Made by a program: the position numbers and the translations under genes | From: an uncultured Bacteroidota bacterium | GTDB lineage: Bacteria > Bacteroidota > Ignavibacteria > UBA10030 > UBA8401 | Reading direction: 5' to 3' | Length of the DNA: 64,000 bases | Assembly (NCBI GenBank): GCA_963717445.1 | Contig: OY970334.1 | Location: 3,987,704 to 4,051,703, forward strand | Notes under the pieces: model-generated | What the model was told of the DNA's origin: nothing | What the model saw: the letters and a program-made list of their open reading frames with translations, nothing else | Databases searched by the model: none | Shown here: piece by piece, positions 39,290 through 57,210 of the stretch | Numbering within the stretch: position 1 is the first letter of the stretch | Layout: each line of letters starts with the position of its first letter

Positions 39290-39330
39290 GGGGTCGTAGC
39301 TCAGTTTGGTTAGAGCGCCTGCCTGTCACG
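39290..39330 (+). repeat. attL: displaced 5' fragment of tRNA-Asp
   Basis: GGGGTCGTAGCTCAGTTTGGTTAGAGCGCCTGCCTGTCACG, identity ending one base past the anticodon loop. Confidence 0.92.
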
Positions 39331-39392
39331 GTCGTGCCGAGGCTTCAAATTTCTTAGCATTCCTAAGCATTCTTGCAAATTTTCCCTTCAAG

Positions 39393-39416
39393 CGTCTAAC
39401 TTTTCTTCTAACACTT
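39393..39416 (+). repeat. Candidate integrase arm-type sites, left end
   Basis: CGTCTAACTTTT plus CTTCTAACACTT in tandem; the same 12-mer occurs twice at 57041-57064. Confidence 0.65.
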
Positions 39417-39479
39417 TCCCTAAAAAGAAGCTTCGCCAATCTTTCACCGAAAAACCATAAACATTAATTCGGAGGAAAT

Positions 39480-40484
39480 ATGGGAAGCCTTATTCGTCAC
39501 AAGTCAGGGGTCTACTACAGTATCACATCCTTAAACGGCAAGAGAGTCTGGCGATCCTTGCGTACAAAAAACCGCATGGAGGCGTACAAGAAATATCTTT
39601 CCGAGATCAAACCTGAAGTCAAGAAACCGAAGTCGCTCTCATTAACCGATGCCCAAGACCAATACTTGGACTATGTGAAAACTAACTTCTCGCCGAAAAC
39701 GGTTAGCATTTATCAAAACGTCTTTAAACTCTTCGATAGCTTTATTGGCGAAATGGATTTGCATGATATATCGACCCGCGATGTAGACATGTACAAGGCC
39801 AGCCGGATAAAAGATGTTTCAGCCAATACAGTCAATCATGACTTGCGAAGCCTGAAAGCATTCTTCAACCGTTTACTTGTTTGGAAGATGATCGAATCAA
39901 ACCCATGTAATGGAATAAAGACGATCAGAGTCGTCGATACGATCAGGCCATATCTTTCCAAAGAGGATCTCACAAAATTGCTCGCGTACACCAAGGGGAC
40001 TCAATTGCATGACATTATTTTGTTGGCTGCAATGACGGGTTTGAGGAGGGGAGAACTGCTTGGTCTGGCATGGGAGGATGTGGATTTGAAGCAAGGGACG
40101 CTTTTAGTCCATAGCACAATCGGCCACACAACGAAAGGGGGAAAGATCAGGCTCATTCCGATGAATTCAGCAGTCAGGGAGTTATTTGAGAGATTGCCGA
40201 AAAACGAGGGACCGATTTTTATAGGGGAGCGGGGAGGATGGAAGAAGGGAGATTTTGTTGGCAGGAGTTTCAAGAAGGCCATACGGGGTTGTGGATTGGA
40301 TCCGAAGCTTCATTTTCACTCACTCCGGCACACCTTTGCAAGCTTGCTTGTAAAAGAGGGAGTATCGCTTTATCATGTGCAGAGGCTCTTAGGGCATTCA
40401 TCCTCACGTGTCACGGAAATCTATGCACATCTGGGGACGACTGAGTTAAGCGGCTCGGTAGAAAAATTGGCAATGGCAGGCTAA
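39480..40484 (+). CDS. Tyrosine recombinase / integrase 1
   Basis: GLRRGE, TKGGK, HSLRH, LGH, EIY catalytic set intact; short N-terminal arm-binding-like region; GGAGG RBS. Confidence 0.93.
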   Translation: MGSLIRHKSGVYYSITSLNGKRVWRSLRTKNRMEAYKKYLSEIKPEVKKPKSLSLTDAQDQYLDYVKTNFSPKTVSIYQNVFKLFDSFIGEMDLHDISTRDVDMYKASRIKDVSANTVNHDLRSLKAFFNRLLVWKMIESNPCNGIKTIRVVDTIRPYLSKEDLTKLLAYTKGTQLHDIILLAAMTGLRRGELLGLAWEDVDLKQGTLLVHSTIGHTTKGGKIRLIPMNSAVRELFERLPKNEGPIFIGERGGWKKGDFVGRSFKKAIRGCGLDPKLHFHSLRHTFASLLVKEGVSLYHVQRLLGHSSSRVTEIYAHLGTTELSGSVEKLAMAG

Positions 40485-40613
40485 TTCGCTATTCTAAAAG
40501 CCCATATTTTCATTGTGAAATGGTATGTAACATGAAATAACATATCGTTTGCCATTCATACATATTTTGCTATATTTGTTACATATCAATTTTCTCAATA
40601 TTATCACATACAT

Positions 40614-41690
40614 ATGAAATTCAATTCTGATCAACCGTTTGAATTACCCCTTCTTCCACCGGCCTTAAACTTCAAGCATGAGGAATTTTTTGATATTCTA
40701 ATGAAGACGAGAACCGAGTTAGGCGAGTTAAACGGATATTCGTACACGCTTCCCAATCCAATATTGCTGCTTTCTCCCGCCGTACTCAAGGAGTCTGTTG
40801 CAAGTTCGAATATCGAAAATATCAACACAACGATGGAGGAGGCTTTACAAGCTCAACTCTTTCCAGATGCAGAACAGAAAAAGCCCGATAAAGAAGTGCT
40901 CCGGTACAGAGACGCCATCCAGTGGGGGTTTGAAAACCTCAAGAAAATCCCGATCTCGACTCGGTTGATTCTTGGGATTGAAAAAAAACTGATGCCGGAT
41001 AGAATAGAAGGATACAGGAGGACTCAGAATAAAATTACAAACGTCACGACAGGGAAAGCTCTCTATACTCCACCGACCGCTAACGAACTTCCCAGGCTGT
41101 TAGGCAACTGGGAGAATTTTGTCAATGCTGAAGACGATAACATCGACCCGCTTGTTAAATGTGCAATCGCTCACTACCAATTTGAAGCAATCCACCCATT
41201 TAGCGATGGCAATGGTCGAACGGGGAGAATCCTAATAGTATTGTTTCTAATTCAGCGGAAGCTTCTCTCATTGCCGATTCTCTATGTCAGCGGATACATC
41301 AACAAAAACCGAAACGAGTACTATCGGCTTTTGCGCGAAGTAAGCACAGAAGGAAAATGGCATGAGTGGATTCTCTTTATGCTAAAAGGCTACCACCTGC
41401 AAGCAAAAGGGACAAAGGAAGTCATTCTCCGGATTACAGAAATGCTTGAAGAAATGAAGGTGCTTCTCCGGACAAAGCACAGAAAAATCTATTCATCGGA
41501 CTTAGCAGAAGCGTTGTTTGCATATCCGATTGTTACGCCAATTAACCTTGGCAAAAGGTTAGACGTGAACTACCGAACGGCAAGCCGTTACCTTGTGGAA
41601 CTTGAGAAGGGGAAGGTTCTTAGTGAAAGTTACATTGGGAAGTATCATCTCTATTCAAACAAGCGATTGTTGAAAATGCTCAGATCGTAA
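40614..41690 (+). CDS. Fic-domain protein with inhibitory motif and C-terminal HTH
   Basis: HPFSDGNGRTGR; N-terminal SSNIEN matches (S/T)xxxE(G/N); VNYRTASRYLVEL helix-turn-helix. Confidence 0.92.
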   Translation: MKFNSDQPFELPLLPPALNFKHEEFFDILMKTRTELGELNGYSYTLPNPILLLSPAVLKESVASSNIENINTTMEEALQAQLFPDAEQKKPDKEVLRYRDAIQWGFENLKKIPISTRLILGIEKKLMPDRIEGYRRTQNKITNVTTGKALYTPPTANELPRLLGNWENFVNAEDDNIDPLVKCAIAHYQFEAIHPFSDGNGRTGRILIVLFLIQRKLLSLPILYVSGYINKNRNEYYRLLREVSTEGKWHEWILFMLKGYHLQAKGTKEVILRITEMLEEMKVLLRTKHRKIYSSDLAEALFAYPIVTPINLGKRLDVNYRTASRYLVELEKGKVLSESYIGKYHLYSNKRLLKMLRS

Positions 41691-41793
41691 AGTGTGTTTT
41701 GTATTGGGCGCATTACGATTACTGCAATACGCTGGAGTTAAAGAAGCTTCTATAATTATTGTATAACTATGGCACATATAATTTAATTTGCCA

Positions 41794-41880
41794 TCTTCTT
41801 CACGGGTAACGGAAATCTATGCTCATCTTGGAACTACGGAATTGAGCGGTTCGGTAGAAAAATTGGCGATGGCAGGATGA
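41794..41880 (+). pseudogene. Second, synonymously recoded copy of the last 28 codons of integrase 1
   Basis: Encodes SSSRVTEIYAHLGTTELSGSVEKLAMAG*, identical to 40398-40484 in protein, with 15 nt differences. Confidence 0.9.
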
Positions 41881-41910
41881 CGCTTTTATATCTCATGCAG
41901 AGGCACAGCA

Positions 41911-42123
41911 ATGAATATCAGGATTAGGATCGAGAAACTTGAATTGCCCAGGCGAAAATTGCGAGAGGAAGAAGCACGGCTGGAAGAAGAAGCAAGAAAA
42001 GCAGGATTTAGTCTCGATGAATATAAAGAAATCAAAAAACAAATTGCCGCATTGTCCCCTGAGGAGCTAATAGAACTGGCGGGGATGACACTCACGAAAG
42101 AACTTGAATCCGAGAACGAGTGA
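41911..42123 (+). CDS. Small hypothetical coiled-coil protein
   Basis: GAGG RBS; N-terminus MNIRIRIEKLE resembles the ORFs at 55124 and 55462. Confidence 0.6.
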   Translation: MNIRIRIEKLELPRRKLREEEARLEEEARKAGFSLDEYKEIKKQIAALSPEELIELAGMTLTKELESENE

Positions 42124-42169
42124 GTGAATATTTACATTTACCAAGATTCCGGAGGACGCCAGTGGCAAA

Positions 42170-42226
42170 TTTTCGTTTGCCTACGCTCTTTCGGTGACCT
42201 TGAGCGACTTGTTAGGGCGCCACGTT
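42170..42226 (-). other. Truncated integron attC site (left half only)
   Basis: Minus strand AACGTGGCGCCCTAAC-AAGTCGCTCAAGG directly after the ATPase stop; no matching GTTRRRY arm seen. Confidence 0.65.
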
Positions 42227-42431
42227 AGAAAGCCTTACCTTGAGTGATATTTAAGCCGTCCCGGTAGATCATCGGAATTTTATAGCTAATGCCGAATTCC
42301 TCAAGAAAGCCTATGTCCACAAGGAGTCTAATCTTGGTTCGTAACTCCTCGTCTTGGGATTGACCTGCCCCCCAAAAACCGATCCACTCTGAAGTTAGAA
42401 AATTTTATATTGTGGATCAACGGAGGCAGCA

Positions 42432-42710
42432 ATGAGCAGAAAAAAGCATACAGCGGAGGAGATCATCAACAAACTGCGAGAAGCAGAGGTCTTGCAGGCT
42501 AAGGGGATGTCGATCGAGGAAGTGATGCGACAGCTTGGAATAAGCGATGCAACGTATTACAAGTGGCGGAGGGAGTATGGAGGCCTACGGGTTGATCAGG
42601 CAAAGCGATTGAAGGAGCTAGAACAGGAGAACAGCCGATTGCGGAGGGTCGTGGCGGATCTGACGATTGATAACTCGATCTTGAAGGAAGCCTCACGGGG
42701 AAACTTTTAA
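42432..42710 (+). CDS. IS3 transposase OrfA
   Basis: HTH region (ISDATYYKWRREYGG) and leucine zipper LKELEQENSRLRRVVADL. Confidence 0.93.
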   Translation: MSRKKHTAEEIINKLREAEVLQAKGMSIEEVMRQLGISDATYYKWRREYGGLRVDQAKRLKELEQENSRLRRVVADLTIDNSILKEASRGNF

Positions 42711-42754
42711 GCCCGGTCAAACGGCGCCGGGCAGCGGAAGAGATCCAGGAAGAA

Positions 42755-43552
42755 ATGATCGTATCAGAGCGACGAGTATGCCGTGTATTGGGACAAGCAC
42801 GATCAACGCAGCGACAAGAGCACAGAGCCAGCGAAGAAGAAGAACGCCTTACACAGCGCATCACAGAGCTGGCATGTCAATATGGGCGTTATGGCTATCG
42901 TCGGGTAACCTTGTTACTGAGGACTGAAGGATGGCGTGTGAACCACAAGCGAGTCGAACGGATATGGCGTCAGGAAGGCCTGAAAGTGCCCAAAAGGCAG
43001 CGCAAGCGACGACGTCTATGGCTCAATGATGGATCCTATATCCGACTGAGACCAGAACACAAGGATCACGTCTGGAGTTATGATTTTGTTGCAGACAGAA
43101 CGAGTAATGGAAAACCGTTAAGGATGCTCAACGTGATCGACGAGTACACCAGAGAATGCCTGGCGATCAGGATTGACCGGAAGCTTACCTCGAACGATGT
43201 TGTGGAGGCTTTAGCAGAATTATTTGTGACGAGGGGAACCCCGGCACATATCCGCTCGGACAATGGACCGGAGTTTATTGCAGAGGCAGTACGAACATGG
43301 CTTCAACGGCTCGGTGTGGATCCACTCTTTATCGAACCGGGAAGTCCTTGGGAGAACGGATACATCGAATCATTCAACGGAAAGTTAAGAGACGAGTTGC
43401 TTAATGGAGAGATCTTTGATACAATTACGGAGGCAAAGGTTGTGACGGAACGATGGAGGAACTACTACAACAAAATCAGACCACACAGTTCGTTAGGCTA
43501 CAAACCACCGGCACCGGAAACATTTTATTCACTTCAGGTTGCCAATGCCTGA
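42755..43552 (+). CDS. IS3 transposase OrfB (DDE)
   Basis: WSYDF, RSDNGPEF, PWENGYIESFNGKLRDE, RPHSSLGY. Confidence 0.95.
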   Translation: MIVSERRVCRVLGQARSTQRQEHRASEEEERLTQRITELACQYGRYGYRRVTLLLRTEGWRVNHKRVERIWRQEGLKVPKRQRKRRRLWLNDGSYIRLRPEHKDHVWSYDFVADRTSNGKPLRMLNVIDEYTRECLAIRIDRKLTSNDVVEALAELFVTRGTPAHIRSDNGPEFIAEAVRTWLQRLGVDPLFIEPGSPWENGYIESFNGKLRDELLNGEIFDTITEAKVVTERWRNYYNKIRPHSSLGYKPPAPETFYSLQVANA

Positions 43553-44969
43553 AAAAATTAACTAACTTAACATTGGCACATAAACTGGGGGCAGGTCACG
43601 ATAGAGTAGCGGAATCATATTCAGATTTTTTGTCGCGGAAGGCTTGAATGAGATATGCGCTCTCGCCTGCTTCCGCAAGAAGAGTGTCTTCGACACGTTC
43701 TTGGCTTAGCGAGGTTAGTCCTCTCTTAATCGAGTCAGCCTGAAAGATTGACTCACCCACTTTCAGGGCGCGTGGATCGCGTTCTTCTTTGCGAATTTGA
43801 ATGTCTCGAGCTTTCTTAAGTAGATCGATTAAATTGCGAGGGGGCTTGACACCGTTACCATCACGAATTCGGGATAAGATCCAGGTCCACGTCAAAGGTT
43901 TTTTTTCTCCAACGTCGATTTGTTCAGGGAAGAAAAATGCGAAGATTTCTTTCTTAGTTCTTCCGCCAAGGTTTGCCTCATTGATGACTTTCGAGTTATT
44001 CATTATTCGACGCATCAAAAGGTCGAAGAGGTCCTCGTCGTTCCAAGTCACGGCTATTCTTCGGGCATTTACGTGGGTGAGGTTTACGAAGCCGCCTTCT
44101 ATTATTTTTCTAAACAAATCGTTCCTCACAAACAGCTTAAGGCGGATGTTCTCGAATTCGAGCAAATCGAGGTATGTTCTGAATAACGCACGAAGAGCTG
44201 GTTTTTCAGTATTTGGGAATCCTTGGAATGCTTCATCAAGTCTATCAATTACGACCCATGCTTTTAGTTCAATCTGAGCAAGAACTTGATTGAGAAGGAG
44301 AAATGCTTCATAATGGTCAACGACAGGATGCGGTGAGTCACGGGGAGGAGCCTCTTCTCCAAACTCTACTTTTGGTACCAGGATAGGCATTCCTTGTGGA
44401 CTAATCGTCATTTTTAATTCGACGGACTTTGGAGTGATTAATCTCTGAACAACATTAACCAATTTGGAGAAAACGGTGTTGGGTGTATCATCAACTGTGC
44501 GTAAATCAATTTTCTTGAGAAGATCGTCCAACTCGATCATTTCGTCAGAGTAAGATCCTTCATAAACCTGTAGAATCCAATTGCCAACAAGTGAGATGAT
44601 GTAAGCTTTCCAGATTGTCAAGTATTGCCCTTCATCAAGAACTTTCGTTTGTGCAAGGCGTTGGAAAACTGGATTGCCCGAAGGATTGAATCCGGTGATT
44701 ATCTCGGTGTCTTCAAGAGAGGCGATTGATCTGTATGTGCTTTGGAGGATTTTATAGAGTGACGTTTTACCGGTTCCTTTGTCGCCGGCTATAATGTCGC
44801 CTTTGTCTCCAATTAAAGAGCGAAAGGTATCGGTTTCCACGAAGTACTCTTGGAGGCCAGTGTCAAATTCAGCGACTGAACTTCCGAGGTTCAGGTCCTT
44901 CAGTATTTCTAATGGTGTCATTTTGATCTCCTCGTTCTAATGCATTATGTGTTGTGACGAAACGTGGCG

Positions 44970-45035
44970 ACCTAACGAACCCGAGCTAAACTGCAGCGAC
45001 GGCTGGTTCCCTTCGCTTTAGAGACTCATTAGCCC
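44970..45035 (-). other. Integron attC site (degenerate, ~66 bp)
   Basis: Minus strand GGGCTAATGAG...TTTAGCTCGGGTTCGTTAGGTC, ending in a perfect GTTRRRY; shares CGACGGCTGG with the attC at 45750. Confidence 0.65.
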
Positions 45036-45039
45036 GTGC

Positions 45040-45717
45040 TCAGATTGTTGCTTTAATAACGCGTTTTCGTTCTTCCTCAAGCGACGCTATCTGGTCCGCG
45101 CTGAATGGCTCGTACATTTTTACATCTTGATGAGTGATTAGGTTCTCCACAAGCCAGTGTCCAGCGGAAGTTATATTTTTGTGTATCTTCAACTCCCATT
45201 TCATTTCTGTTGTAGTGCCACTCGCTGTTGTCTTTCTTGTTTGAAGGCAGGTCATTATGCTGCCAACAGCAGTGCTAAGATAATCATATAGATCGGGCCC
45301 AAGAAATATGGAGGCGAGAAAAAGATTTTGGCGAGTTTCAAGAACTTTGTGCCAAAATCTATTGATTTCGTCCTTTGGAGTCGCCGTTGTCCACGACCAA
45401 CAATCTTGGTATTCGAAATAGAGCCCATAGACGGAATGATAGTGCGCAAGTTTTTTAGCGGCTGATTGTTTGGCAATTTCAAGCCTGAATCTGCTTCTCA
45501 ACTCTTCATCGCGGAAAGCTACATCGAGCTTGCGAGAAAAGGATTCAACTGATTTCTTCGATATTTCGTCCGCAATGCCTTCGACTCTTCTGAGAAAGTA
45601 ACGCAGGATAAGCCAAACGGCAATTCCTAAGGTAGTGAGAAGTAGCCCAATTGATGGCGCAAACATGCGAGCGACTTCTCGGACAGTTTTTAAGTAAAGG
45701 TCAATTTCTGTCGGCAT
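45040..45717 (-). CDS. Cassette-borne hypothetical membrane protein
   Basis: One N-terminal TM helix, GAGGAG RBS, bounded by attC sites. Confidence 0.7.
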   Translation of the reverse strand: MPTEIDLYLKTVREVARMFAPSIGLLLTTLGIAVWLILRYFLRRVEGIADEISKKSVESFSRKLDVAFRDEELRSRFRLEIAKQSAAKKLAHYHSVYGLYFEYQDCWSWTTATPKDEINRFWHKVLETRQNLFLASIFLGPDLYDYLSTAVGSIMTCLQTRKTTASGTTTEMKWELKIHKNITSAGHWLVENLITHQDVKMYEPFSADQIASLEEERKRVIKATI

Positions 45718-45749
45718 CTTGTTATTGACTCCTCAATAGTTGGTCTGCG

Positions 45750-45899
45750 CCCTAACGACCGGAGCTGAGCTGCGGCGGCGAACAGCCGCCAGGTAGTTCG
45801 TTGCGTGGATGTTCCACTCAGTTGTTCCTAAGACCGTCCAACACCGAGCGGCAAAATCGTCGACGGCTGGGTTCCGTCAGCTTGAGCGGCTGTTTAGGG
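45750..45899 (-). other. Integron attC site (~150 bp)
   Basis: Minus strand GCCCTAAACAGCCGCTCAAGCTGACGG...CCGCCGCAGCTCAGCTCCGGTCGTTAGGGC; outer arms GCGCCCTAA/TTAGGGCGC. Confidence 0.85.
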
Positions 45900-45916
45900 C
45901 GCAGCACGAATATGAG

Positions 45917-46615
45917 CTATTTGAATTCATATGGCTCTTCCGTTAGATGCGCTTCATTTTGTTTGCAATAAATGATACCAATATCACTCAGTAAGAATTG
46001 CATAGTCTTTGGATCCATTGCAACAAGTCCGCGTGATGCGAGCTCACGGATAGCGATGATGAACTCTGGATATTCAGGATTGAATGCTCCAATTGTGAAA
46101 GTCCATCGTTTTGAGAAGTCATCAAAGGCTTTTTGGTATTTCCAGAGAGTGGAAAGAATTTTATTTATAATTTTGGACAGATTTGCAGGCAAAGGTGCTA
46201 CTCCAAGCGGTAGAACTACGTCAGGTGCAGGTGCTGGCGTCGGAAAGGTTGCTTGACCTTGTTTAGATCTAAACTTCCACTGTCCAAATGAAATCTCTTC
46301 AAGGTTTTTAATATATTCCGCCAGATGTTGCAGTGCCGCTGACAGGTGCTTCCGAAACATGAGGACTAAAAACACAACAACGAATGGCCAAGCATATGCG
46401 ATGAGAAGGTCTTTGATCGTGATCCAACTATCAGGCAATTGTATTTGTTGGGTTGTGTTCGTACACTCTCGCGGGACTTGAATCGTTATCGTGTTTACAT
46501 TCTGAGGCTGTAAAGAAGTACCCTTGGTTTTAACAATAGCACTGTCCTTTTTAACAGTTCGAAGCACTTTTTTCACGCTCGTGGAAGGACAATTTGTTTG
46601 TTGGTCTGACGTCAT
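45917..46615 (-). CDS. Cassette-borne hypothetical membrane protein
   Basis: Central TM (YAWPFVVVFLVLMF), proline-rich linker, helical C-terminal domain; GAGGAGG RBS. Confidence 0.7.
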   Translation of the reverse strand: MTSDQQTNCPSTSVKKVLRTVKKDSAIVKTKGTSLQPQNVNTITIQVPRECTNTTQQIQLPDSWITIKDLLIAYAWPFVVVFLVLMFRKHLSAALQHLAEYIKNLEEISFGQWKFRSKQGQATFPTPAPAPDVVLPLGVAPLPANLSKIINKILSTLWKYQKAFDDFSKRWTFTIGAFNPEYPEFIIAIRELASRGLVAMDPKTMQFLLSDIGIIYCKQNEAHLTEEPYEFK

Positions 46616-46673
46616 TTGCTGTTCCTCCTCGTGTGAAAATATTCAGAGTTTTTGAGTTAAGTAGATGTGAAAT

Positions 46674-46705
46674 GTGCTGCGCCCTAACTAAGATTAGATT
46701 GTATG
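46674..46705 (-). other. First cassette junction / attI-like site
   Basis: Minus strand AATCTAATCTTA-GTTAGGGCGCAGCAC; no attC hairpin upstream of the GTT. Confidence 0.45.
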
Positions 46706-47024
46706 TAGCAATAACACGTTGCCTTTTAGTATGAATGATAGACTTCTCCCCACAGGATAATGTAAGAATCGTGGGAGTATGCGGTAGGTTTAAGATTGCC
46801 CCCGCTCTATCTCTGGTACAAAACTACACGATTTTGTAAGCAAACGCAACCTTATCCAACATTTGATTGAATTGCATATCCGCGATTTTTCCTCTATCTT
46901 TTCGTAGATTTCTTGAGGCGGAGACCTTATTTGAATCCATTCCCTTCGAATCAATTGACGAAATCCCATAATTCAAGGCATTCAAAAGTAAACAGACCGG
47001 TTCTTTTCTTATCAACATACAATC

Positions 47025-50000: not shown

Positions 50001-50258
50001 TTCCTGAGACAGAGAGGTGATTCACAAGCTATCATACAGAAAACCTCCGATGTATCGGGGGGTGAGGCATGTATCCGTAATACAAGGATTGCTGTATGGA
50101 CGATCATCAGCCTAATTAAGCTCGGATCTTCAGACGCTGACATAATCAAAGCATATCCTTCCCTGGATATGGTTGATCTTCAATCTGCTCGGTTTTACTT
50201 TGACCGGCACACTGATGAAATTGAGCAATCAATCAAGCAGCACGAGGAGGCAGATTAG
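47025..50258 (+). CDS. res: Type III restriction endonuclease Res (BPTD_3080-like) with C-terminal DUF433 fusion
   Basis: MATGSGKT, NDEAHH, SATP, MLTEGWD, QVVGRGLRR, PDF...IEVTG; then in frame SGGEACIRNTRIAVWTII...IIKAYPSL (DUF433-like). Confidence 0.88.
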   Translation: MKNKSAMKQVVIENPILNSPFKEPARHFRFSDEGITNEIVEGRRISSYFIPIAKPRKKGGNQLTFDTEWTEDRIEENKFINQVRERVAQWRNQGYPSSSITKTTKQLLEYWQHEDRTRKLFFCQIEAVETAIYLTEVAKKYGDTWIDNKIHAANLEANPLLYRVAFKMATGSGKTVVMAMIIAWQALNKIANSQDSLFSDSFLIVTPGITIRDRLRVLLPNDPQNYYKAMDIVPPDLLEELGKAKIIITNFHAFGRREKVAAGKLTKSILSKGDTSVFTETPDQMVRRVCRELGSKKNIVVINDEAHHCYRRKADGEEEMLKGDERKEAEKREEEARIWISGLEAVKAKLGLKVVYDLSATPFFLRGSGYPEGTLFPWVVSDFSLIDAIECGIVKVPRVPVSDDSMVGDQPTYRDLWLRIREHLPKKGRKTQALEGEPNLPVELEGALQSLYLNYEKYYRKWEQNTEARSRGLTPPVFIVVCNNTNVSKMVYDYIAGWEKELQDEERIVVPGKLSLFNNEENGKWSARPNTILVDSQQLESGEAMSDDFKKIAAAEIEEFKAEYRLRFPGRDVDILTDEDLLREVMNTVGKLGKLGEQIKCVVSVSMLTEGWDANTVTHILGVRAFGTQLLCEQVVGRGLRRMSYAANEKGHFMPEYAEVYGVPFSFIPSAGSAVDPRPGPMPTRVRALEDRVACEITFPRLTGYRYELPAEKLTAKFTDASRMALSTADIPTKTENAPIVGETSIHTLDKLKLRREQEVIFLLSKFVLERYLRDADDNTKPWLFPQLLRIARDWRNQCVTLKDNTFVQLLLLIEFANQAAQKIYHAIVNADEGGKRLMPILRPFDTIGSTRYVDFDTTRSTYRTREDRCHVNDVVLHSGWEGKMAQTLEDMEDVFCYVKNQNLGFTIPYTLDSEEHNYVPDFIVKVNDGHGKEDLLNLVIEVTGEKKKDKQVKVSTAKTLWIPAVNNHSGFGRWDFLEIEDPWDAAHSIIDFLRQRGDSQAIIQKTSDVSGGEACIRNTRIAVWTIISLIKLGSSDADIIKAYPSLDMVDLQSARFYFDRHTDEIEQSIKQHEEAD

Positions 50259-50594
50259 TTGGCCAAACTATACACCAATGAGAATTTCCCTCAGCCTTCA
50301 GTTGATGAACTTCGCAGATTAGGATATGACGTACTCACTTCGCATGAGGCTGGAAACTCAAATCAGCGAATCCCGGACCCCGATGTTCTTAATTATGCAA
50401 CTGAAAAAGAAAGAGTACTAATTACCTTCAACCGGAAACACTTCATAGCTTTGCACAAATCAAATGGTGTGCACTCCGGTATCGTAGTATGCACCGTGGA
50501 CAACGATTTCGTGGCGTTGGCGCAAAGGATAGACGTGGAACTTAAACAGAACGGTAACCCTGCTGGTATGCTGATCAAAGTCAACAGGCATTGA
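50259..50594 (+). CDS. DUF5615 PIN-like protein (putative toxin)
   Basis: LYTNENFP...LRRLGYDV...DPDVLNYA...RVLITFNRKHF...HSGI; TTG start right after the res stop, GAGGAGG RBS. Confidence 0.85.
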   Translation: MAKLYTNENFPQPSVDELRRLGYDVLTSHEAGNSNQRIPDPDVLNYATEKERVLITFNRKHFIALHKSNGVHSGIVVCTVDNDFVALAQRIDVELKQNGNPAGMLIKVNRH

Positions 50595-50618
50595 AGGTCT
50601 CGTCAATAGGACAAACCG

Positions 50619-53420
50619 ATGGCAAAACAAAAAAAGAAAAAAAGGGATGCGAAGATCGTCTACTCAACCCCCGTAGAGCACATGAAGCATCGTGACAAAA
50701 GGGTGAACATTCCCACAGAAGAGTTGCGGGACTTCGTAGCTGAAGATGAGAAGGCGCCCCAAAAGATGTTGTACCCCCGTGATCCGTCGCTCGACCCACA
50801 GCTGGTGTGGAAGGGAAAAGACGAGCAGGACTCAAAGCCTTTAGAAGTTCCCATTGTGCCTATCTACATTCAGGAGAAAATTCACCCTCAGGCGATTGTT
50901 GAGGATTTAAGGGCTCAAGCTCGAAAGGAAAAACCAGAAGATCAGGTTGGTTTATTTGATGACTTCAACGGCATTAACTTCGAGGAAATGATCGATTTCT
51001 ACCAACACGAGCAAAATTGGACAAATCGTGCGATTCTCGGTGACTCACTACTTGTTATGACCTCTCTCTCCGAAAAGGAAGGGCTGAAAGGAAAAGTACA
51101 GAGCATTTACTTTGATCCACCGTACGGTATTAAGTTTGGTTCCAACTGGCAGGTGTCCACCAGGCGGAAAGATGTAAAGGACGGTAAAGTGGAGGACACA
51201 ACGCGGCAACCAGAACAAATCAAAGCATTTCGTGACACATGGGAGAACCACATACACTCTTACCTTGCGTATCTTCGGGATAGACTCGTCGTCTGTCGAG
51301 ATTTGTTGACGGAAAGCGGAAGCCTCTTCGTTCAGATCGGAGAGGAAAACGTGCATCTTGTCAGATCAGTTCTTGACGAAGTGTTTGGGGCCGAGAATTT
51401 CTGCAGTCAAATTGCTTTTAGAACTGCAACAAGCCAGCCAACCACTTTGATTTCATGTGTCTACGATTTTGTTCTTTGGTATGGCAAAGTCAAAAGAGAT
51501 GTAAAATACCGCACGCTAAATCGAGAACGCGAGTACTTTGAGAAAATATCGACCTTTGGCTGGATTGAATTGCAGAACGGACAAGAAAGAACTCTCTCTG
51601 CCAAAGAAAAGAGAGGCGAAATCGCATTACCAGAAGGGGGCAAGCTTTTTAAGGACGCAGATATTACACTCGTGCGTAAACCCGACAAACCATACCAACA
51701 TCCGAGATTCAAAGGGAAGGAATTTCCGCTTTCACTTCAGCTTCGATATGTAGATGGCATTGAGAGGCTTGTTGCAGACGATAGAGTCGTTGTTGTAAAT
51801 GATCGCCTTTGCGGAAAACGATATGAGAGTGACATCCCTTACGTGAAGTATAATTCTGTTTGGGACGATACTATGCAAGGGACTTTCGAGCTGACAAAAG
51901 ACCCAAAAAAATATGTAGTGCAAACAGCACCGAAGGTGATACAGCGTTGTCTTCTTATGACCACTGAACCCGGGGACCTTGTGCTTGATCCGACCTGCGG
52001 TAGTGGCACAACCGCATTTGTCGCCGAACAATGGGGACGGCGGTGGATTACCATTGATACGTCGCGGGTAGCTCTCGCGCTGGCTCGCACGCGTCTCATG
52101 GGAGCGAAATTCCCTTATTACCTTCTCTCAGACTCAGCGGATGGAGCCCAAAAAGAGGCAGAAATTACGGGTAAAATCCCCTCAAGCATAGTTCCAAAAA
52201 GAGAAAATGACATCAAAAAAGGGTTCGTGTATCGACGAATCCCTCACATCTCGCTCAAGTCTATTACAAACGACAGACAGATCGACGCTATTTATGCGAA
52301 GCGACAAGGGAATCTTGACGCAATTCGTGCCGAGTTAAACACGTCTCTCAAGCAGTCATGGGAGGACTGGCAAGTACCAGGAGAAGCAGACCAAACATGG
52401 CCACACAAGACTAAGCAATTCCACGCAGAGTGGTGGAAGCTGTACCGTGAACGGCGGAAAGAGATTGATGACCTTATAGCACGTCATTCTGATACCGAGT
52501 TGCTGTACGATCAGCCGTACGAGGACAATAAGCGCATTAGGGTGACCGGTCCGTTTACTGTCGAATCACTTTCCCCTCACCGGGTACTCTCAACCGCAGA
52601 CGATGATCGCGATGGAAAATTCTCTGAACAAGAAGCAATGCAGCAACAAGACTTCGTCTCGATGATCCTTGATAATCTCCGGAAAGCGGGTGTTCAGAAT
52701 ACAGTAAGAAAAGAGCGACTCAAATTTGATCGACTCGATTCGTTTGCGGGGGTCTGGCTCCATGGTTCGGGTGAGTATTCGGAGAATGGCAAGAGGAAGC
52801 GAGTAGTCATATCTATCGGTCCTGAACATGGAACGGTCGGACCACAACTCATCAAAGAAGCAGCTAAGGAGGCGGTATTGGGGGTTGGTTTTGACTTGCT
52901 CATTGTCTGTGGCTTTGCCTTCGATCCCCACGTTTCCGAAGAGGCGAAACGGTACGGCAAGCTCACTGTCCTCATCGCCCGAATGAATCCCGACCTTGCA
53001 ATGGGTGATGAACTGCTCAAGAAGACTGGAGCAGGCAACCTCTTCATGGTGTTCGGTGAGCCGGACATGGAAGTGAAAAAGCAAAAGGATGGTAAGATCA
53101 TCGTCACTATCAAAGGTCTTGATGTCTACGATCCAACCACAGGTCAGATCCGCTCAAGTACTACAGACGACATTGCATGCTGGTTCATCGATACGAACTA
53201 CAACGGCGAGAGCTTCTTCGTGCGTCATGCTTACTTCACTGGTGCGGATGAGCCATACGAAAAACTCAAGCGAGCCCTCCGAGCCGAGATCGACGAGGCC
53301 GCATGGTCTGCCCTCTACTCCACCAAGAGCCGTCCCTTTGATACACCGATCACAGGAAAGATTGCCGTGAAGGTAATAAATCACTTCGGTGATGAGGTGT
53401 TGAAGGTCTATGATTTGTAA
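50619..53420 (+). CDS. mod: Type III DNA methyltransferase Mod (beta-class motif order)
   Basis: YFDPPY (motif IV), a variable central region, then VLDPTCGSGTT (motif I). Confidence 0.9.
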   Translation: MAKQKKKKRDAKIVYSTPVEHMKHRDKRVNIPTEELRDFVAEDEKAPQKMLYPRDPSLDPQLVWKGKDEQDSKPLEVPIVPIYIQEKIHPQAIVEDLRAQARKEKPEDQVGLFDDFNGINFEEMIDFYQHEQNWTNRAILGDSLLVMTSLSEKEGLKGKVQSIYFDPPYGIKFGSNWQVSTRRKDVKDGKVEDTTRQPEQIKAFRDTWENHIHSYLAYLRDRLVVCRDLLTESGSLFVQIGEENVHLVRSVLDEVFGAENFCSQIAFRTATSQPTTLISCVYDFVLWYGKVKRDVKYRTLNREREYFEKISTFGWIELQNGQERTLSAKEKRGEIALPEGGKLFKDADITLVRKPDKPYQHPRFKGKEFPLSLQLRYVDGIERLVADDRVVVVNDRLCGKRYESDIPYVKYNSVWDDTMQGTFELTKDPKKYVVQTAPKVIQRCLLMTTEPGDLVLDPTCGSGTTAFVAEQWGRRWITIDTSRVALALARTRLMGAKFPYYLLSDSADGAQKEAEITGKIPSSIVPKRENDIKKGFVYRRIPHISLKSITNDRQIDAIYAKRQGNLDAIRAELNTSLKQSWEDWQVPGEADQTWPHKTKQFHAEWWKLYRERRKEIDDLIARHSDTELLYDQPYEDNKRIRVTGPFTVESLSPHRVLSTADDDRDGKFSEQEAMQQQDFVSMILDNLRKAGVQNTVRKERLKFDRLDSFAGVWLHGSGEYSENGKRKRVVISIGPEHGTVGPQLIKEAAKEAVLGVGFDLLIVCGFAFDPHVSEEAKRYGKLTVLIARMNPDLAMGDELLKKTGAGNLFMVFGEPDMEVKKQKDGKIIVTIKGLDVYDPTTGQIRSSTTDDIACWFIDTNYNGESFFVRHAYFTGADEPYEKLKRALRAEIDEAAWSALYSTKSRPFDTPITGKIAVKVINHFGDEVLKVYDL

Positions 53421-53514
53421 AGGAAATTTTTTTTATGCACATGCCAACTTGAAATCTGATGCAAGCTGTGACCCATTAATAATTTTTCCCTAACGTTCAG
53501 ATATTGCCCAAGCG

Positions 53515-54645
53515 ATGAGGCGAGAGTCGATTAAAACGACCATCTTGAAAACGCCGCCAAGAATCTCTCGATTCAATTACTGGAACTTCCTCGACATCAA
53601 TCCACTCCTCCGCCAAAAATTTTACGAAAGGGATTATGATCTAACTGAATTCCGTTGGATGTTTGACAAGAACCTCTCTCAGCGGTATAAGGAGTCTTAT
53701 GAATCGGGAAACACCGAGGCACTCTTTGAATATGCTGAAATCAATCGCTTCTTCCTTCATCAACAGTGGGTTCGAGATAAGCTACAACTATGGCTGTTGA
53801 GGCCAGACAGAAATGTCAAAAAATGGATAAACCGTTTGCTATTCGGTGACAAGTCTGGAAGGCGGAATGAGACCAATCCGGCCGGTCTTCAGAGAATTGT
53901 GGAACGGGACAAGAGAATTTTCATTGATATGATCCGTCTTAGGCAAAAAGGCTATCCGCTAACCGGCTCGTCTTCCTCGAAGAAAGTAGTAGATACTCAA
54001 TCACGTTCGATTTTCTCAAAGCTCGCAAAAAAATATAATGTTGGCGAAGAATCAATTAGAGATGTATATAAGTACTATAATAAATTCTACAAGGAACAAG
54101 CCAAACTTATCGACAAGGAAACCGACCGTGCACTAAGGAGAATGATAAATAAGTTCTATGGAAGATTTCCTTTCAATCGTTATAAATACACTCCCAGATT
54201 TATACTGAGAGATTCCCTTCAAAAACAAACGAAGAAAATAAAACGGACTAAAAGCGAGATTTATCTGGAATGTCGGAGGCTATTGAAAATCTACAAGGAT
54301 CCGAGACTGTCGAAGGCACAAATAGAATACAATTTTGAGACATCAATACTTCAAAATGATTTTCATCGTTGGTGGCGAGGTACGATCAGCCGTTACTACC
54401 CCTGGGGGTTCACTGAAGAAGGATTTATTCGGTTTCTGCGAGACTGCAAAATTATACTCGAAGGTAACAGATACTTTCTCCCATACCAATGGGCTATTCA
54501 GAACCTCGTTGAAGTGATATACCGGATGTCTTCTAACCCCACTGAGGAAGAATTCATCAATGAATTGGAGGATATGAATATTAATGGCTTTTTTGATGTA
54601 ATGGGCTTGTTGCCGAAAGTCAACAAGATGAGATTGGGTCGATGA
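53515..54645 (+). CDS. Hypothetical basic protein with a possible HTH
   Basis: Long AT-rich ORF; IFSKLAKKYNVGEESIRDVY is HTH-like. Confidence 0.6.
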   Translation: MRRESIKTTILKTPPRISRFNYWNFLDINPLLRQKFYERDYDLTEFRWMFDKNLSQRYKESYESGNTEALFEYAEINRFFLHQQWVRDKLQLWLLRPDRNVKKWINRLLFGDKSGRRNETNPAGLQRIVERDKRIFIDMIRLRQKGYPLTGSSSSKKVVDTQSRSIFSKLAKKYNVGEESIRDVYKYYNKFYKEQAKLIDKETDRALRRMINKFYGRFPFNRYKYTPRFILRDSLQKQTKKIKRTKSEIYLECRRLLKIYKDPRLSKAQIEYNFETSILQNDFHRWWRGTISRYYPWGFTEEGFIRFLRDCKIILEGNRYFLPYQWAIQNLVEVIYRMSSNPTEEEFINELEDMNINGFFDVMGLLPKVNKMRLGR

Positions 54646-54694
54646 ACGCCATGAATTAAACCCAATGCGAAGTTCGTAATAAATGTTTAGGATT

Positions 54695-54765
54695 AGAGGT
54701 CAGCCTTCGGTATATCCGGACTTTCGCTCTAACAAAACCGTGTTGACGCTCGAAGGCTGACATCT
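54695..54765. repeat. 15-bp inverted repeat upstream of the small-gene operon
   Basis: AGAGGTCAGCCTTCG (54695-54709) / CGAAGGCTGACATCT (54751-54765), 14/15 match. Confidence 0.7.
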
Positions 54766-54860
54766 TTGAGTCCAAAGTCATCACGGTTTTTGTTTTTTAA
54801 GGCAATGATAAGGCGTCTCAAATAGATCAAATAAATGGTCTTAGAAAGCTGTAACCACTA

Positions 54861-55115
54861 ATGGAAGAACCCCTTAGCAAGAACGCAAATAAAGATGGTC
54901 AAGAGAGCAAAAATCTGCGACCGATTAGGATCCGGTCCGTTAAAGATGCTCGTCGGCTGCTGGCAAGAATCCTAAGGCAATTACAATTGGGTGAAATTTC
55001 GGAGTCGAAAGCAAAGACAATCTCTTATGTTGCAAATAGCTATGCGAAGTTGTTTGAGGTCTCTGAACTGGAAGAACGGGTCGCAGAACTCGAAAAGAGA
55101 ACGACGGCAAAATAG
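54861..55115 (+). CDS. Small helical protein resembling the C-terminal region of DUF5681-type terminase-small-subunit-like proteins
   Basis: IRSVKDARRLLARILRQLQLGEISESKAKTISYVANSYAKLFEVSELEERVAELE pattern, recognised by eye. Confidence 0.55.
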   Translation: MEEPLSKNANKDGQESKNLRPIRIRSVKDARRLLARILRQLQLGEISESKAKTISYVANSYAKLFEVSELEERVAELEKRTTAK

Positions 55116-55123
55116 ATCGATAA

Positions 55124-55465
55124 ATGGTTATGAGGATTGAAGAAAGAATTCGGAGGTTAGAACAAAAGCTTGGATTAGACAAAAGCATCGAGACAGACGT
55201 GGTAACTCTCTTATATGGGTGTGATGAATCACATGGACCTCAATTGGAAGCTGAAGGATGCGTAAGGGAGGGGGATTCGTGGGTGCGGTACGTAGAACCA
55301 AGTGAGAAATGGGCGAAAAGGCAAGAAGCGAAGGGACGTCGCATAAGGACCAGAATTATGTATCGAATTAATACTCCGAGCACCGAAACAGAGGACATCG
55401 TCGAAAAGGCCCAAACCAAGAAATTAAGTTCCTTAGTTAAAAATCGTTCAGCGGTTGCAGGATGA
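55124..55465 (+). CDS. Small hypothetical protein
   Basis: Operonic; N-terminal RIEERIRRLE; ATGA overlap with the next gene. Confidence 0.65.
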   Translation: MVMRIEERIRRLEQKLGLDKSIETDVVTLLYGCDESHGPQLEAEGCVREGDSWVRYVEPSEKWAKRQEAKGRRIRTRIMYRINTPSTETEDIVEKAQTKKLSSLVKNRSAVAG

Positions 55466-55722
55466 GTCTCAAGATACGAATCAAAGATTTGGAAAAAAAG
55501 AAGAACCCAACGGATCAAGGCCCAAAAAGTCACGTCATCATCTTCACTCCAGGTGTTGATAACGTTGATGCGCTGGTTGCCGAATATCGAAAAAAAGATA
55601 GCGAAAGCTTCCTCTTTGTCATCCCGCGATTCATGCGAAGGACAGAATTATCCGATATGAGTGCTCAAAGCGGAAATAATAACGATTCGAAACAGAATGG
55701 ATCCCAGTTAGGACGACCGTGA
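55462..55722 (+). CDS. Small hypothetical protein
   Basis: N-terminal MSLKIRIKDLE; GTGA overlap with integrase 2. Confidence 0.65.
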   Translation: MSLKIRIKDLEKKKNPTDQGPKSHVIIFTPGVDNVDALVAEYRKKDSESFLFVIPRFMRRTELSDMSAQSGNNNDSKQNGSQLGRP

Positions 55723-56975
55723 ATCCGAGTTTTTTGATACCGGAAGACATATTGTTGGAACCTCGGCTCCTCCAAGTGTACTGTTACTTGTTGAGGATGG
55801 TTTGTAATGAGCCGACGAAAATTCGTAAAGACGGGGTTATGGTGGAATTGAGGAGGCTGGAAGTAGCAATTTTAGGAAGAGACATCTCCCACGATCTTGC
55901 TTTACCGATGAGTGACATCGAACCGCTTTTGAACAAATTGGTCGAGGTAGAGCGAATCATAGTTGACAGAAAGGACGACCTTATGAAAATACGATTCATG
56001 AAATTGCTCTTCCCGCGGTCGAGTGATAGTTCAAACGATGAAAGCCTCCGGGGGGATGTCAGCGACTATTGGCTCGACGATTTCAAAACCGACTACCAGG
56101 AATATGTACAGACGAACCTTTCCCAAAAGTCACTTGATAATGCAAAAAGAGTGATGAAATTATTCTGCAATTTCGTTGGGAAAAAGAAGTTGGGCTACAT
56201 CAGGTCATCAGATGCGGAGGACTTCAAACAAATGCGCAAGAATCAAAAATCTCGCGTTTCAGATGCTACTATCAACATGGATATTAGAACCCTTAAGGCC
56301 GCATTCCAATTCGCAGTGGATGTAGGGAAACTTCATGAAAATCCATTCCGAGCTGTAAAGCAAATTCGATGTCCGCGAAAGCAAATGGCAACTTTCAGTC
56401 ATACAGAGTTTAAGCATTTGACTGGTCATATCAAAGAGCCCTGGCTGCTGGACATAGTCAGATTTGACGTGAATACTGGACTCCGACGAGGAGAAATTGT
56501 AAACCTACGTTGGAAGGATGTTGATCTGGCGAACAAACGCATGTTGATTCAATCATCAGCAGAGTACCAAGTGAAGCATGGAAAGTTTCGCCAAGTCCCT
56601 CTCAATAAGGCAGCATTGGGAATAGTCAAAAGACAAAGTAAGGAAACTGAGTGGGTGTTCTCTGACAGCAATGGGTATAAGTTTGTCGATGAATTTGTTT
56701 CGAAGAAATTCAAAGGGTATGTGAGGCTCTGCAAGCTTTCGGAGGAATTACATTTTCATTCTCTTCGGGCAACGTTTGCAACTTGGGCAATTGCGGCGGG
56801 AATGTCGATCTATGCTGTGAAGGCGATCTTGGGCCATGCGTCAGTGAAGACATCGGAAACCTATGCTTCATACGAAATGGACGCACTTCAGAAGGAAGTC
56901 GAAAAGATTGTTTTGGTCGAAGAAGCAGAGGAATTCAAAGCACCGCTGAAGCTTGTAGGCAAAAAACGATCTTAG
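55719..56975 (+). CDS. Tyrosine recombinase 2 with ~110-aa N-terminal winged-helix-like extension
   Basis: GLRRGE, VKHGK, HSLRA, LGH, ETY intact; core region resembles integrase 1. Confidence 0.9.
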   Translation: MNPSFLIPEDILLEPRLLQVYCYLLRMVCNEPTKIRKDGVMVELRRLEVAILGRDISHDLALPMSDIEPLLNKLVEVERIIVDRKDDLMKIRFMKLLFPRSSDSSNDESLRGDVSDYWLDDFKTDYQEYVQTNLSQKSLDNAKRVMKLFCNFVGKKKLGYIRSSDAEDFKQMRKNQKSRVSDATINMDIRTLKAAFQFAVDVGKLHENPFRAVKQIRCPRKQMATFSHTEFKHLTGHIKEPWLLDIVRFDVNTGLRRGEIVNLRWKDVDLANKRMLIQSSAEYQVKHGKFRQVPLNKAALGIVKRQSKETEWVFSDSNGYKFVDEFVSKKFKGYVRLCKLSEELHFHSLRATFATWAIAAGMSIYAVKAILGHASVKTSETYASYEMDALQKEVEKIVLVEEAEEFKAPLKLVGKKRS

Positions 56976-56991
56976 GAGTACAAAAATGCTA

Positions 56992-57020
56992 TTGCAGAAC
57001 GCAAACAATTTTCTTATATT
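56992..57020 (+). promoter_or_regulatory. Element-encoded putative promoter for tRNA-Asp
   Basis: TTGCAG-N17-TATATT inside the element, about 115 nt upstream of the tRNA. Confidence 0.5.
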
Positions 57021-57040
57021 GATTTCGAAGACTTGGGAAG

Positions 57041-57064
57041 CTTCTAACACTTCTTCTAACACTT
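57041..57064 (+). repeat. Candidate integrase arm-type sites, right end
   Basis: CTTCTAACACTT twice in perfect tandem. Confidence 0.7.
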
Positions 57065-57135
57065 TTTCACGTTGGAGGAGAGAAGAAAAACGCTGAATGG
57101 TGTCGGAAATGCTGAAAAGTCTAAGAAATATGCAC

Positions 57136-57210
57136 GGGGTCGTAGCTCAGTTTGGTTAGAGCGCCTGCCTGTCACGCAGGAAGTCGCGAGTTCGAGTCTC
57201 GTCGGCCCCG
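57136..57210 (+). tRNA. trnD: tRNA-Asp (GTC)
   Basis: Acceptor stem GGGGTCG/CGGCCCC, anticodon stem CCTGC/GCAGG with GTC, T-arm GCGAG-TTCGAGT-CTCGT; CCA not encoded. Confidence 0.97.

Follow-up and report, generated by a model that had tools for sequence, protein, structure and literature searches.

A probable reverse-oriented integrative island at tRNA-Asp in an Ignavibacteria-like soil bacterium

The stretch of DNA analysed here, referred to as the window (64 kb), comes from an Ignavibacteria-like soil bacterium of the Bacteroidota group and contains a 17.8-kb island (39331-57135) that lies between a displaced fragment of a tRNA-Asp(GTC) gene and the intact gene, with an integrase gene at each end, Int1 on the left and Int2 on the right. 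The island was probably inserted by site-specific recombination of the tyrosine-recombinase type in the anticodon-loop region of the tRNA gene, in reversed target orientation, with the element supplying the 5' half of the tRNA together with a putative promoter and the copy in the window being composite. In a protein search of genome contigs the best matches of the host genes were Ignavibacteriota/Bacteroidota metagenome-assembled genomes.

The tRNA-Asp junctions and the island arms

Scans of the window for tRNA genes were made with ARAGORN and Rfam, and direct and inverted repeats were searched for across the 64 kb. The sole tRNA is tRNA-Asp(GTC) at 57136-57211 (+), with its anticodon at position 36 according to ARAGORN, and it is placed by Rfam at 57136-57210 with 68.8 bits. 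An exact direct repeat of 41 nucleotides (nt), D3, occupies 39290-39330 and 57136-57176 and consists of tRNA nt 1-41, i.e. the 5' strand of the acceptor stem, the D arm, the 5' strand of the anticodon stem, the 7-nt loop (nt 34-40) and one extra base. An earlier sequence-only reading of the window had described exactly this, a 41-bp duplication of the tRNA 5' end through the anticodon loop plus one base, with the fragment upstream and the intact gene downstream, and its description was borne out. On the same strand, the fragment precedes the intact gene by 17,846 nt, no third copy of the 16-nt repeat core (up to 3 mismatches allowed) was found anywhere in the 64-kb window, and the chance recurrence of an exact 41-mer is negligible. 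The left copy (39290-39330, +) is taken as the attL core, with the same fragment standing upstream of the Int1 homologues of the relatives L001, L081, L084, L089, L093 and L095, and the right copy (57136-57176) as the attR core within the reconstituted gene. The layout is that by which Islander recognises islands, with a full tRNA and a fragment in the same orientation, the 5' fragment upstream and a tyrosine integrase within an interval of 2-200 kb, and the identity block ends at the anticodon stem-loop, as it does for islands at the anticodon-loop sublocation (A).

It is also clear from the alignment of junctions across the Int1 clade that the boundary is a shared one. The clade comprises seven lineages (the window, L001, L081-L083, L084-L087/L114, L088/L089, L093/L094 and L095/L096), with Int1 identity to the window spanning 85% to 50%, and in 7/7 a tRNA-Asp 5' fragment of 40-41 nt lies 123-149 nt upstream of the Int1 start on the same strand. 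Identity between the att copies is conserved over nt 1-40 and stops exactly after the anticodon loop CTGTCAC; position 41 varies across the lineages (G, G, A, G, T, A and T), and the agreement of the two window copies at nt 41 is accordingly incidental. The crossover in the anticodon loop that had been proposed for the window is supported by this end of identity in seven lineages, and by kin whose 3' fragments begin at nt 29-35, as a crossover at or to the left of the loop. These kin are distant members of the integrase family, at ~30-38% identity and in the usual orientation. Some have int immediately after an intact tRNA (L101, L103, L104, L106, L108, L112 and L116), and others have left 3' fragments from nt 29-35 (L115, L122, L151/L152 and L163), from which it follows that the family uses the anticodon-loop sublocation. 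By this comparison of junctions the Int1 clade appears to differ from its usual-orientation kin only in the half of the tRNA carried by attP. The acceptor pair 6-67 is G-C in L089 as against C-G in all other lineages, with the 5' strand from the island covarying with the 3' strand from the host, and this covariation argues for a working hybrid tRNA under selection.

The mechanism proposed is one in which attP, composed of the P arm, tRNA nt 1-40 and the P' arm, would recombine with attB within the anticodon loop. Integration would leave the 5' half that belonged to the host stranded on the left (39290-39330), and the working tRNA would be a hybrid of nt 1-40 from the island and the 3' half from the host. 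The element supplies the 5' half and all of the DNA upstream of the reconstituted tRNA, as the sequence-only reading had it, and since all of that upstream DNA is island DNA transcription would have to start inside the island.

Int2 (55719-56975, +) is a tyrosine recombinase of 418 amino acids (Pfam Phage_integrase, 3e-30), and its stop codon is separated from the tRNA by an arm of 160 nt, within which the P arm (56982-57135, +) holds a promoter-like motif, two arm-type repeats and a 73-nt leader to tRNA +1. The TTGCAG-N17-TATATT reported earlier is present at 56992-57020, and what stood of that claim is the site, which coincides with the conserved motif in every right arm examined; what needed correction is the promoter type, a -33/-7 type being a better fit than sigma-70. 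Sigma-A promoters of Bacteroidota have TTG at -33 and TAnnTTTG at -7. The motif in the P arm, read as TTG-N20-TATATTGA at 56992-57022, fits this Bacteroidota/Ignavibacteria type (TTG-N19/20-TAnnTT) better than sigma-70; a near-perfect -33/-7 motif, TTG-N20-TATATTTG, lies upstream of the native tRNA-Asp in L084, and L001 has TTG-N19-TATATTTA upstream of an old 16-nt tRNA fragment. A generic scan for sigma-70 promoters and terminators called nothing at either island end, the window site matching at 8/12 positions and falling short of the threshold. The native tRNA-Asp promoters of relatives fit the -33/-7 type, so that sigma-70 was the wrong model for such a scan and was set aside for the window promoter.

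Right arms were searched for the pattern TTG-N17-21-TAnnTT, with chance estimated by shuffling each arm. One and only one match was found per arm, in 7/7 arms, at -144 to -99 from tRNA +1, and two CTAACA[C/G] repeats, 12 nt apart, follow at -92 to -66 in all seven, including that of L097 at a tRNA-Arg. The chance of a motif match was 0.02-0.17 per arm and the product over the independent lineages (n=5 out of the 7 arms, one of the five at tRNA-Arg) was ~1e-6, a figure in which the agreement of positions is not counted. In the window the repeats are TTCTAACAC at 57042-57050 and 57054-57062, oriented as in the P' arm. The block 56982-57211, i.e. P arm and tRNA, is 94% identical to L092, where the int2 genes are 72% identical in nucleotides and the host flanks differ. 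The right-arm site is thus supported, on conservation of sequence and position, as a conserved promoter-like element. The most likely start of tRNA transcription would be at ~57029, from the -33/-7-type motif at 56992-57022, giving a leader of ~105 nt that would contain the two integrase arm sites and be removed by RNase P.

At the left end the P' arm (39331-39479, +) is 149 nt long and holds two arm-type direct repeats (D5), a promoter-like motif and a GGAGG ribosome-binding site. The repeats, GTCTAAC / TTCTAACAC, are at 39394-39414 and their columns are invariant in the seven lineages. Overlapping them is a promoter-like TTG-N21-TAACTTTT at 39373-39404, with a counterpart in L001 at 7201-7232 in the motif scan, that looks like Int1's own promoter and is at present a candidate for that role. 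It had been suggested that the host's original tRNA promoter now faces Int1. No -33/-7 motif was found in 39000-39289, the sole left-side motif being the one within the island arm, and the 196-nt spacer between the aldo-keto reductase (AKR) gene of the host and the fragment is without similarity to the regions upstream of tRNA-Asp in relatives; a host promoter-like motif facing Int1 was seen in the relative L088/L089. A further expectation, that relatives would have the AKR gene, an intact tRNA-Asp and the 65-bp repeats as one contiguous locus, was not confirmed, as in L001 the interval from AKR to the island is taken up by two additional genes and older tRNA fragments. Because of that layout contiguity of AKR and tRNA-Asp is not to be expected even if the model is right, and together with a spacer that has neither motif nor similarity it indicates that the left junction of the window has been remodelled.

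Int1 (39480-40484, +) is a tyrosine recombinase of 334 amino acids (Pfam Phage_integrase, 2e-32) with a short N-terminal extension outside the Pfam coverage; the extension of Int2, of unassigned fold, is ~118 amino acids. Both translations are full length and carry the R..HxxR..H..Y motifs, and the two proteins are 35% identical across the core-binding and catalytic domains (BLASTP). XerA is the closest solved structure for both, the other close solved relatives of Int1 being XerD and Tn1549 Int, and for each protein the three best NCBIfam models are XerA, XerC and XerD, with scores far under the family cut-offs.

Relatives, composite history and alternative readings

Homologues of Int2 precede an intact tRNA gene at six loci, and the two genes share a strand in L092 (70% identity), L182/L183 (74%), L091 (41%), L179/L180 (35%) and L097 (41%). 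The target is tRNA-Asp in all except L097, where it is tRNA-Arg(TCT), and in L091 the tRNA begins only 28 nt past the int2 stop codon. A complete island with both junctions on a single contig is that of L089, which runs from the host M1 peptidase through a promoter-like motif, the 40-nt fragment, a truncated Int1, an IS3 element, Int2, cargo including AbiEii and the right arm to an intact tRNA-Asp. L091 and L179 are unitigs of 11.6-11.7 kb, bounded by att repeats, that extend from within Int1 to the first few bases of the tRNA, with type I and type III-like restriction-modification (R-M) cargo. Both integrases are present in 4/4 units with two visible ends (the window, L089, L091 and L179), always with Int1 on the left, Int2 on the right-hand side and no internal att copy. 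A scan of metagenome contigs with an Int2 profile recovered mainly distant relatives of the Int1 kind. The L088 gene at 3-1193 was considered as a second Int2, which would have made a tandem junction, and was ruled out by Pfam, which identifies it as the host M1 peptidase; L081 (a left end) and L182/L183 (a right end) occur in shared samples, and an attempt to join them was abandoned as the contigs do not overlap.

In complete units, then, two divergent recombinases would flank attP, Int1 after the core and Int2 before the P arm. At L182 11789-13006 (and in L183) an intact tRNA-Asp is flanked on the left by a reverse-oriented element (Int2 and P arm) and on the right by a usual-orientation Int1-like integrase of 337 amino acids, the latter adjoined by two CTGTTAG arm repeats, which are the CTAACA[C/G] repeat inverted. 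With such a repeat beside an Int1-like gene, Int1 might conceivably be the arm-binding integrase. Both halves of the L182 tRNA may be element-derived; no 3' tRNA fragment was found in the 4.5 kb downstream of it. It is conceivable, if rather improbable, that these elements form a distinct family of reverse-oriented tRNA islands with an obligate recombinase pair either side of attP and a P-arm promoter that does double duty. Each recombinase might serve one half of an asymmetric core, attP keeping only the 5' strand of the anticodon stem, or one might integrate and the other excise. The P-arm promoter would drive the hybrid tRNA in the integrated state and, in the circular state, transcribe Int1 from the other side of attP, and arm sites placed downstream of the promoter would couple integrase occupancy to expression of both tRNA and int.

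The island of the window is probably not one pristine element but was assembled from two or more units. The segment from Int1 to the gene for a SoFic protein is 83% identical in nucleotides to L001, where the flanking host genes (GH38 and AKR) are ~80% identical; from a second, partial Int1-like gene onwards the window resembles L081, which has Int1 followed by an open reading frame (ORF) of 70 codons, and at its right end it resembles L092 and L182. The remnant in question (41794-41876, +) is an 83-nt 3' end that is 84% identical to 40398-40480 (repeat D2), and together with the 70-amino-acid ORF it matches the Int1 3' end and 70-amino-acid ORF of L081 at 72% of nucleotides (match over 41794-42047). 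That ORF (41911-42123, +) comes directly after Int1 in the gene order of L081-L083. The SoFic gene is bracketed by the two Int1 3'-end copies (40398-40480 and 41794-41876), which suggests exchange of modules via recombination within int. Exchange of modules between elements also follows from the comparison of the window with L095, in which SoFic (40614-41690 vs 11131-12205) is 94% identical in amino acids and the adjacent Int1 only 54%. The simplest history would be successive integrations at one tRNA followed by deletion across an internal junction and the insertion of IS3, by which an older left part, Int1 to SoFic, common to L001, would have been fused to a newer right part starting at the Int1 remnant.

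A number of observations weigh against the reading as a reverse-oriented, tRNA-driving island. The window motif deviates from TAnnTTTG in the last two positions and lies ~115 nt from the tRNA, farther than native promoters (~20 nt in L084), and the 3' coding end of int2 is overlapped by the -33 element in L179 and by the whole motif in L091, so that part of the conservation of the motif could reflect coding constraint. Many copies are decaying, with Int1 truncated in L089 and the right end deleted in L084, and as the divergence of the Int1-SoFic segment is about that of the host genes the left end may be an old, vertically inherited fossil. No att joints were found in the Logan contigs of the four runs compared with the island, where unitigs stop within the 41-nt repeat, a search of viral contigs for the attP pattern was empty, and genome and metagenome scans did not yield a closely related island-free locus. 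The empty attB proposed as a check in relatives was accordingly looked for without success; in a search of genome contigs with the AKR protein only L001 was syntenic, and it too is occupied, the other loci having no tRNA-Asp near AKR. An exact-protein look-up of the downstream outer-membrane efflux protein gene returned no record.

Alternative explanations have to be weighed against this background. The island could be an immobile fossil, integrated long ago and inherited vertically, with a right-arm motif that is not the tRNA promoter and might instead serve the circular form, as a promoter that transcribes Int1 through attP; the tRNA would then be made by read-through from int2 or be redundant with another tRNA-Asp copy. 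The similar divergence of Int1-SoFic (83%) and the host genes (80%) relative to L001 is what such a history would leave, as are the IS3, the integrase remnant, the truncated Int1 of L089 and the pseudo-tRNA of L084; the 28-nt gap in L091 makes co-transcription with int2 plausible, and L084 retains a second, native tRNA-Asp upstream. This explanation is nevertheless considered doubtful. Int1 and Int2 of the window are full length with catalytic motifs, its att copies are identical over 41 nt, and the 94% identity of 56982-57211 to L092, despite differing flanks and an int2 identity of 72%, suggests recent spread or strong constraint, while the acceptor-stem covariation of L089 argues for selection on the hybrid tRNA. 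Related elements occur at tRNA-Asp with different host flanks, and the island may still be mobile.

A different account would have an Int1-type element on the left and an Int2-type element on the right, sharing the tRNA-Asp target, fused by accident with loss of the internal att, the pair being without joint function. That fusion and decay have occurred is evident from the Int1 remnant (41794-41876) and the IS3; the left part of the island is common to L001 and the right part to L092/L182, never both together, L084 has Int1 only, Int1 was not seen on the L097 contig, and tandem arrays at tDNAs are known, with 125 in Islander (PMC4383910). This account is unlikely, because the two integrases recur in 4/4 two-ended units of divergent lineages (Int1 43-55%, Int2 35-47%) with no internal att, and the arms beside Int1 and Int2 share an identical repeat motif in the same orientation. 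The remnant is moreover of the Int1 type, which implies that the right-hand unit also began with Int1 and ended with Int2, and the right end of L084 has visibly been deleted. Least credible by a long way is an assembly artefact, in which an empty tRNA-Asp and a separate circle or plasmid were misjoined over the 41-nt repeat. The Logan unitigs (k=31) of X1, the run from the source metagenome, end inside that repeat, with even depth of ~6x over flank and island, and because they break there they cannot by themselves separate the integrated form from attB plus a circle; both the unitig ends and the equal depth would fit either configuration. As a repeat of 41 nt is below any read length it poses no problem to standard assemblers. 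Contigs of L001, L081, L089, L093 and L095 run through the attL junction and those of L089, L092 and L182 through the attR junction, and both junctions are on the one L089 contig. The possibility of an artefact had been raised in the sequence-only reading, and the junctions inside contigs of the independent relatives L001, L089, L092 and L182 speak clearly against it.

Cargo, flanking sequences and side observations

The proteins of the window were annotated with Pfam, PADLOC, PHROG and NCBIfam models and by their closest solved structures. The cargo is dominated by anti-phage systems (SoFic, MTase_III, REase_III and PDC-M28C in PADLOC), as is characteristic of a defence island. Directly after Int1 comes the SoFic-type Fic/DOC defence protein (40614-41690, +; Pfam Fic_N, Fic and SoFic-like_C; PADLOC SoFic, 1e-108), which is 91-94% identical in amino acids to the copies adjoining Int1 of L001 and L095. 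The insertion sequence of the IS3 family (42360-43598, +; Pfam HTH_Tnp_1 and rve/rve_3), with orfA at 42432-42710 and orfB at 42755-43552, is multi-copy in the metagenome, at 30-50x as against ~6x for its neighbours, and contigs end at ~42360 and ~43598. On the opposite strand are three cargo genes (43596-46615, -), a PDC-M28C-like ATPase of 441 amino acids (PADLOC PDC-M28C, 3e-22) and the ORFs 45040-45717 and 45917-46615, with a match to phrog_14159 (function unknown). Between the two ORFs is an element of high copy number (~200x) that resembles a miniature inverted-repeat transposable element (MITE), marked by inverted repeat I13. Two such MITE-like elements of ~180-210 nt, each with terminal inverted repeats, are present in the window, at 38044-38258 and 45736-45913; their termini are I1 (38046-38068/38235-38257) and I13 (45736-45755/45894-45913), and both stand at ~200x in the source metagenome as against ~6x for the surroundings.

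The largest cargo is a type III-like R-M module (47025-53420, +; Pfam ResIII, RE_endonuc, DUF433, DUF5615 and N6_N4_Mtase; PADLOC MTase_III, 3e-284, and REase_III, 1.5e-8). It consists of a Res helicase-endonuclease with a C-terminal DUF433 (47025-50258, +; Pfam), a DUF5615 protein (50259-50594, +; Pfam) and a Mod methyltransferase (50619-53420, +; Pfam and PADLOC). The DUF5615 (PIN-like) ORF begins at the res stop codon and DUF433 is fused to the Res C terminus (47025-50594), an arrangement that reads as a toxin-antitoxin-like DUF433/DUF5615 pair inside the R-M operon, between res and mod. Directly upstream of Int2 are an ORF of 376 amino acids and three small ORFs of 84, 113 and 86 amino acids (53515-55722, +), all without family matches. 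The small ORFs belong to a conserved right-end module: the 84-amino-acid product is 75-76% identical in L092 and L182/L183, and weak matches were seen for the 113-amino-acid product in L182/L183 alone and for the 86-amino-acid product in L092 alone. The cargo of relatives includes type I and type III R-M, MmeI-like enzymes, GmrSD, AbiEii, AbiC and TIR proteins.

No virion, packaging or lysis genes were found among the island ORFs with Pfam and PHROG, and no relaxase, coupling protein or type IV secretion domains with Pfam, several ORFs being without any assignment. A search of viral contigs with the Int2 profile gave distant integrases only and, as these contigs also gave no attP pattern, the island is not phage-like. 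It is a non-phage, non-conjugative integrative island with defence cargo.

The host genes on the left are GH38 and AKR, and those on the right, beyond the 65-nt repeats, encode the outer-membrane efflux protein and an HlyD-family protein. The repeats themselves (57201-57536, +) lie outside the island and form a tandem array in which a 65-nt unit is repeated 5.2 times (period 65 with 93% matches in Tandem Repeats Finder). The first three units are identical; each unit opens with the last 12 nt of the tRNA (GTCGGCCCCGCA) and closes with a T-arm-like hairpin, CGCCCGCC-ATCTTTCA-GGCGGG, and with this start and end each mimics the T arm and acceptor 3' strand. Comparable arrays of different sequence follow tRNA-Asp in L092 (11905-12122, unit ~76 nt) and L084 (9278-9400).

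Other remains of traffic at tRNA-Asp were observed in relatives. At L084 12700-12792 the right end of a 2.9-kb Int1-only island is without tRNA nt 1-13 and the P arm, which leaves a pseudo-tRNA, and an intact tRNA-Asp with a perfect -33/-7 promoter persists 600 nt upstream of the left end of that island. Ahead of the 40-41-nt fragment there are also older tRNA-Asp 5' fragments, now degenerate (L001 7027-7117, L081 5057-5189 and L093 791-806), that look like traces of earlier rounds of integration; those of L001 and L081 are interrupted after nt 16, within the D loop, by a small hairpin rich in GC (cccgcc...gcggg). Small GIY-YIG ORFs of 88-89 amino acids lie within tRNA-Asp-like sequence at L084 9419-9712 and 12713-12792, L086 109-1024 and L089 11413-11708, single or in tandem beside tRNA-Asp. 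The last codons of the L084 ORF enter a tRNA 3' half in which the T arm is swapped for another hairpin, and a copy of the tRNA 3' end with a terminator comes next. These ORFs have the appearance of a small mobile element in its own right, with tRNA-Asp as its target.

Significance and comparison with known systems

Integration on the 5' side of a tRNA forces the element to take over the expression of an essential host gene, and because tRNA-Asp at this locus would be transcribed from element DNA host and element would be mutually dependent. The compact, conserved P arm (~150 nt with motif and arm sites) offers a direct test of such a take-over in a poorly studied phylum, and from the integrase pair that recurs in these units it could be learned how recombination proceeds at an asymmetric core derived from a tRNA. 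Reverse-oriented islands carry R-M, SoFic and other defence systems among soil bacteria of the Bacteroidota group, and island finders that expect 3' fragments would miss such elements or mis-delimit them.

The reverse-oriented arrangement is rare but already described. A reversal of target orientation in tRNA-integrating islands was reportedly noted by Zhao & Williams in 2002 (cited in PMC6563490). The Islander collection has 159/3919 islands with a 5' tDNA fragment (PMC4383910), and 5'-distal recombination has been called 'considerably less frequent' (PMC6563490). The island of the window resembles known 5'-fragment islands in its type of integrase (tyrosine), its tRNA target and the placement of the displaced 5' part ahead of the regenerated gene; as the displaced fragment is the 5' part, any such element must provide both that part and the upstream signals. 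It differs from them in its Ignavibacteria/Bacteroidota-like hosts, its new integrase clade and its two integrases per complete unit. Less expected than the orientation are the recurrence of the integrase pair either side of attP and the retention of the P-arm layout across different target tRNAs. With usual-orientation anticodon-loop integrases it shares the crossover sublocation and the position of Int1 just downstream of the core on the tRNA strand, whereas attP of the Int1 clade carries the 5' half and loop and not the loop and 3' half; its core is asymmetric because the 3' strand of the anticodon stem is absent from it.

Integrases specific for dusA insert into the 5' end of their target and replace it with their own sequence, putative -35 and -10 elements lying upstream after integration (PMC4482086). 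Replacement of the 5' end is shared with the island, as may be the supply of promoter elements, and the differences are a protein-coding target, Proteobacteria as hosts, a single integrase of another subfamily and excision shown by polymerase chain reaction. Pipolins are integrative islands of ~20 kb in tRNA genes that serve as defence reservoirs, and many have two tyrosine recombinases, IntSXT and IntP2, of which one is thought to be primary and one secondary (PMC11551731). They differ in that integration is at the 3' end in 99.8%, in being defined by piPolB, which is absent from the island, and in their integrase families.

The pair of recombinases also invites comparison with systems of another kind. 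XerC/XerD and TnpA/TnpB of Tn554 are pairs of divergent tyrosine recombinases whose two members work at one asymmetric core. Int1 and Int2 are like these in scoring best against Xer families, at levels far below the cut-offs, the pairing being known here as co-occurrence only. Unlike the genes of XerC/XerD and Tn554, those of Int1 and Int2 are found at opposite ends of the element and not side by side.

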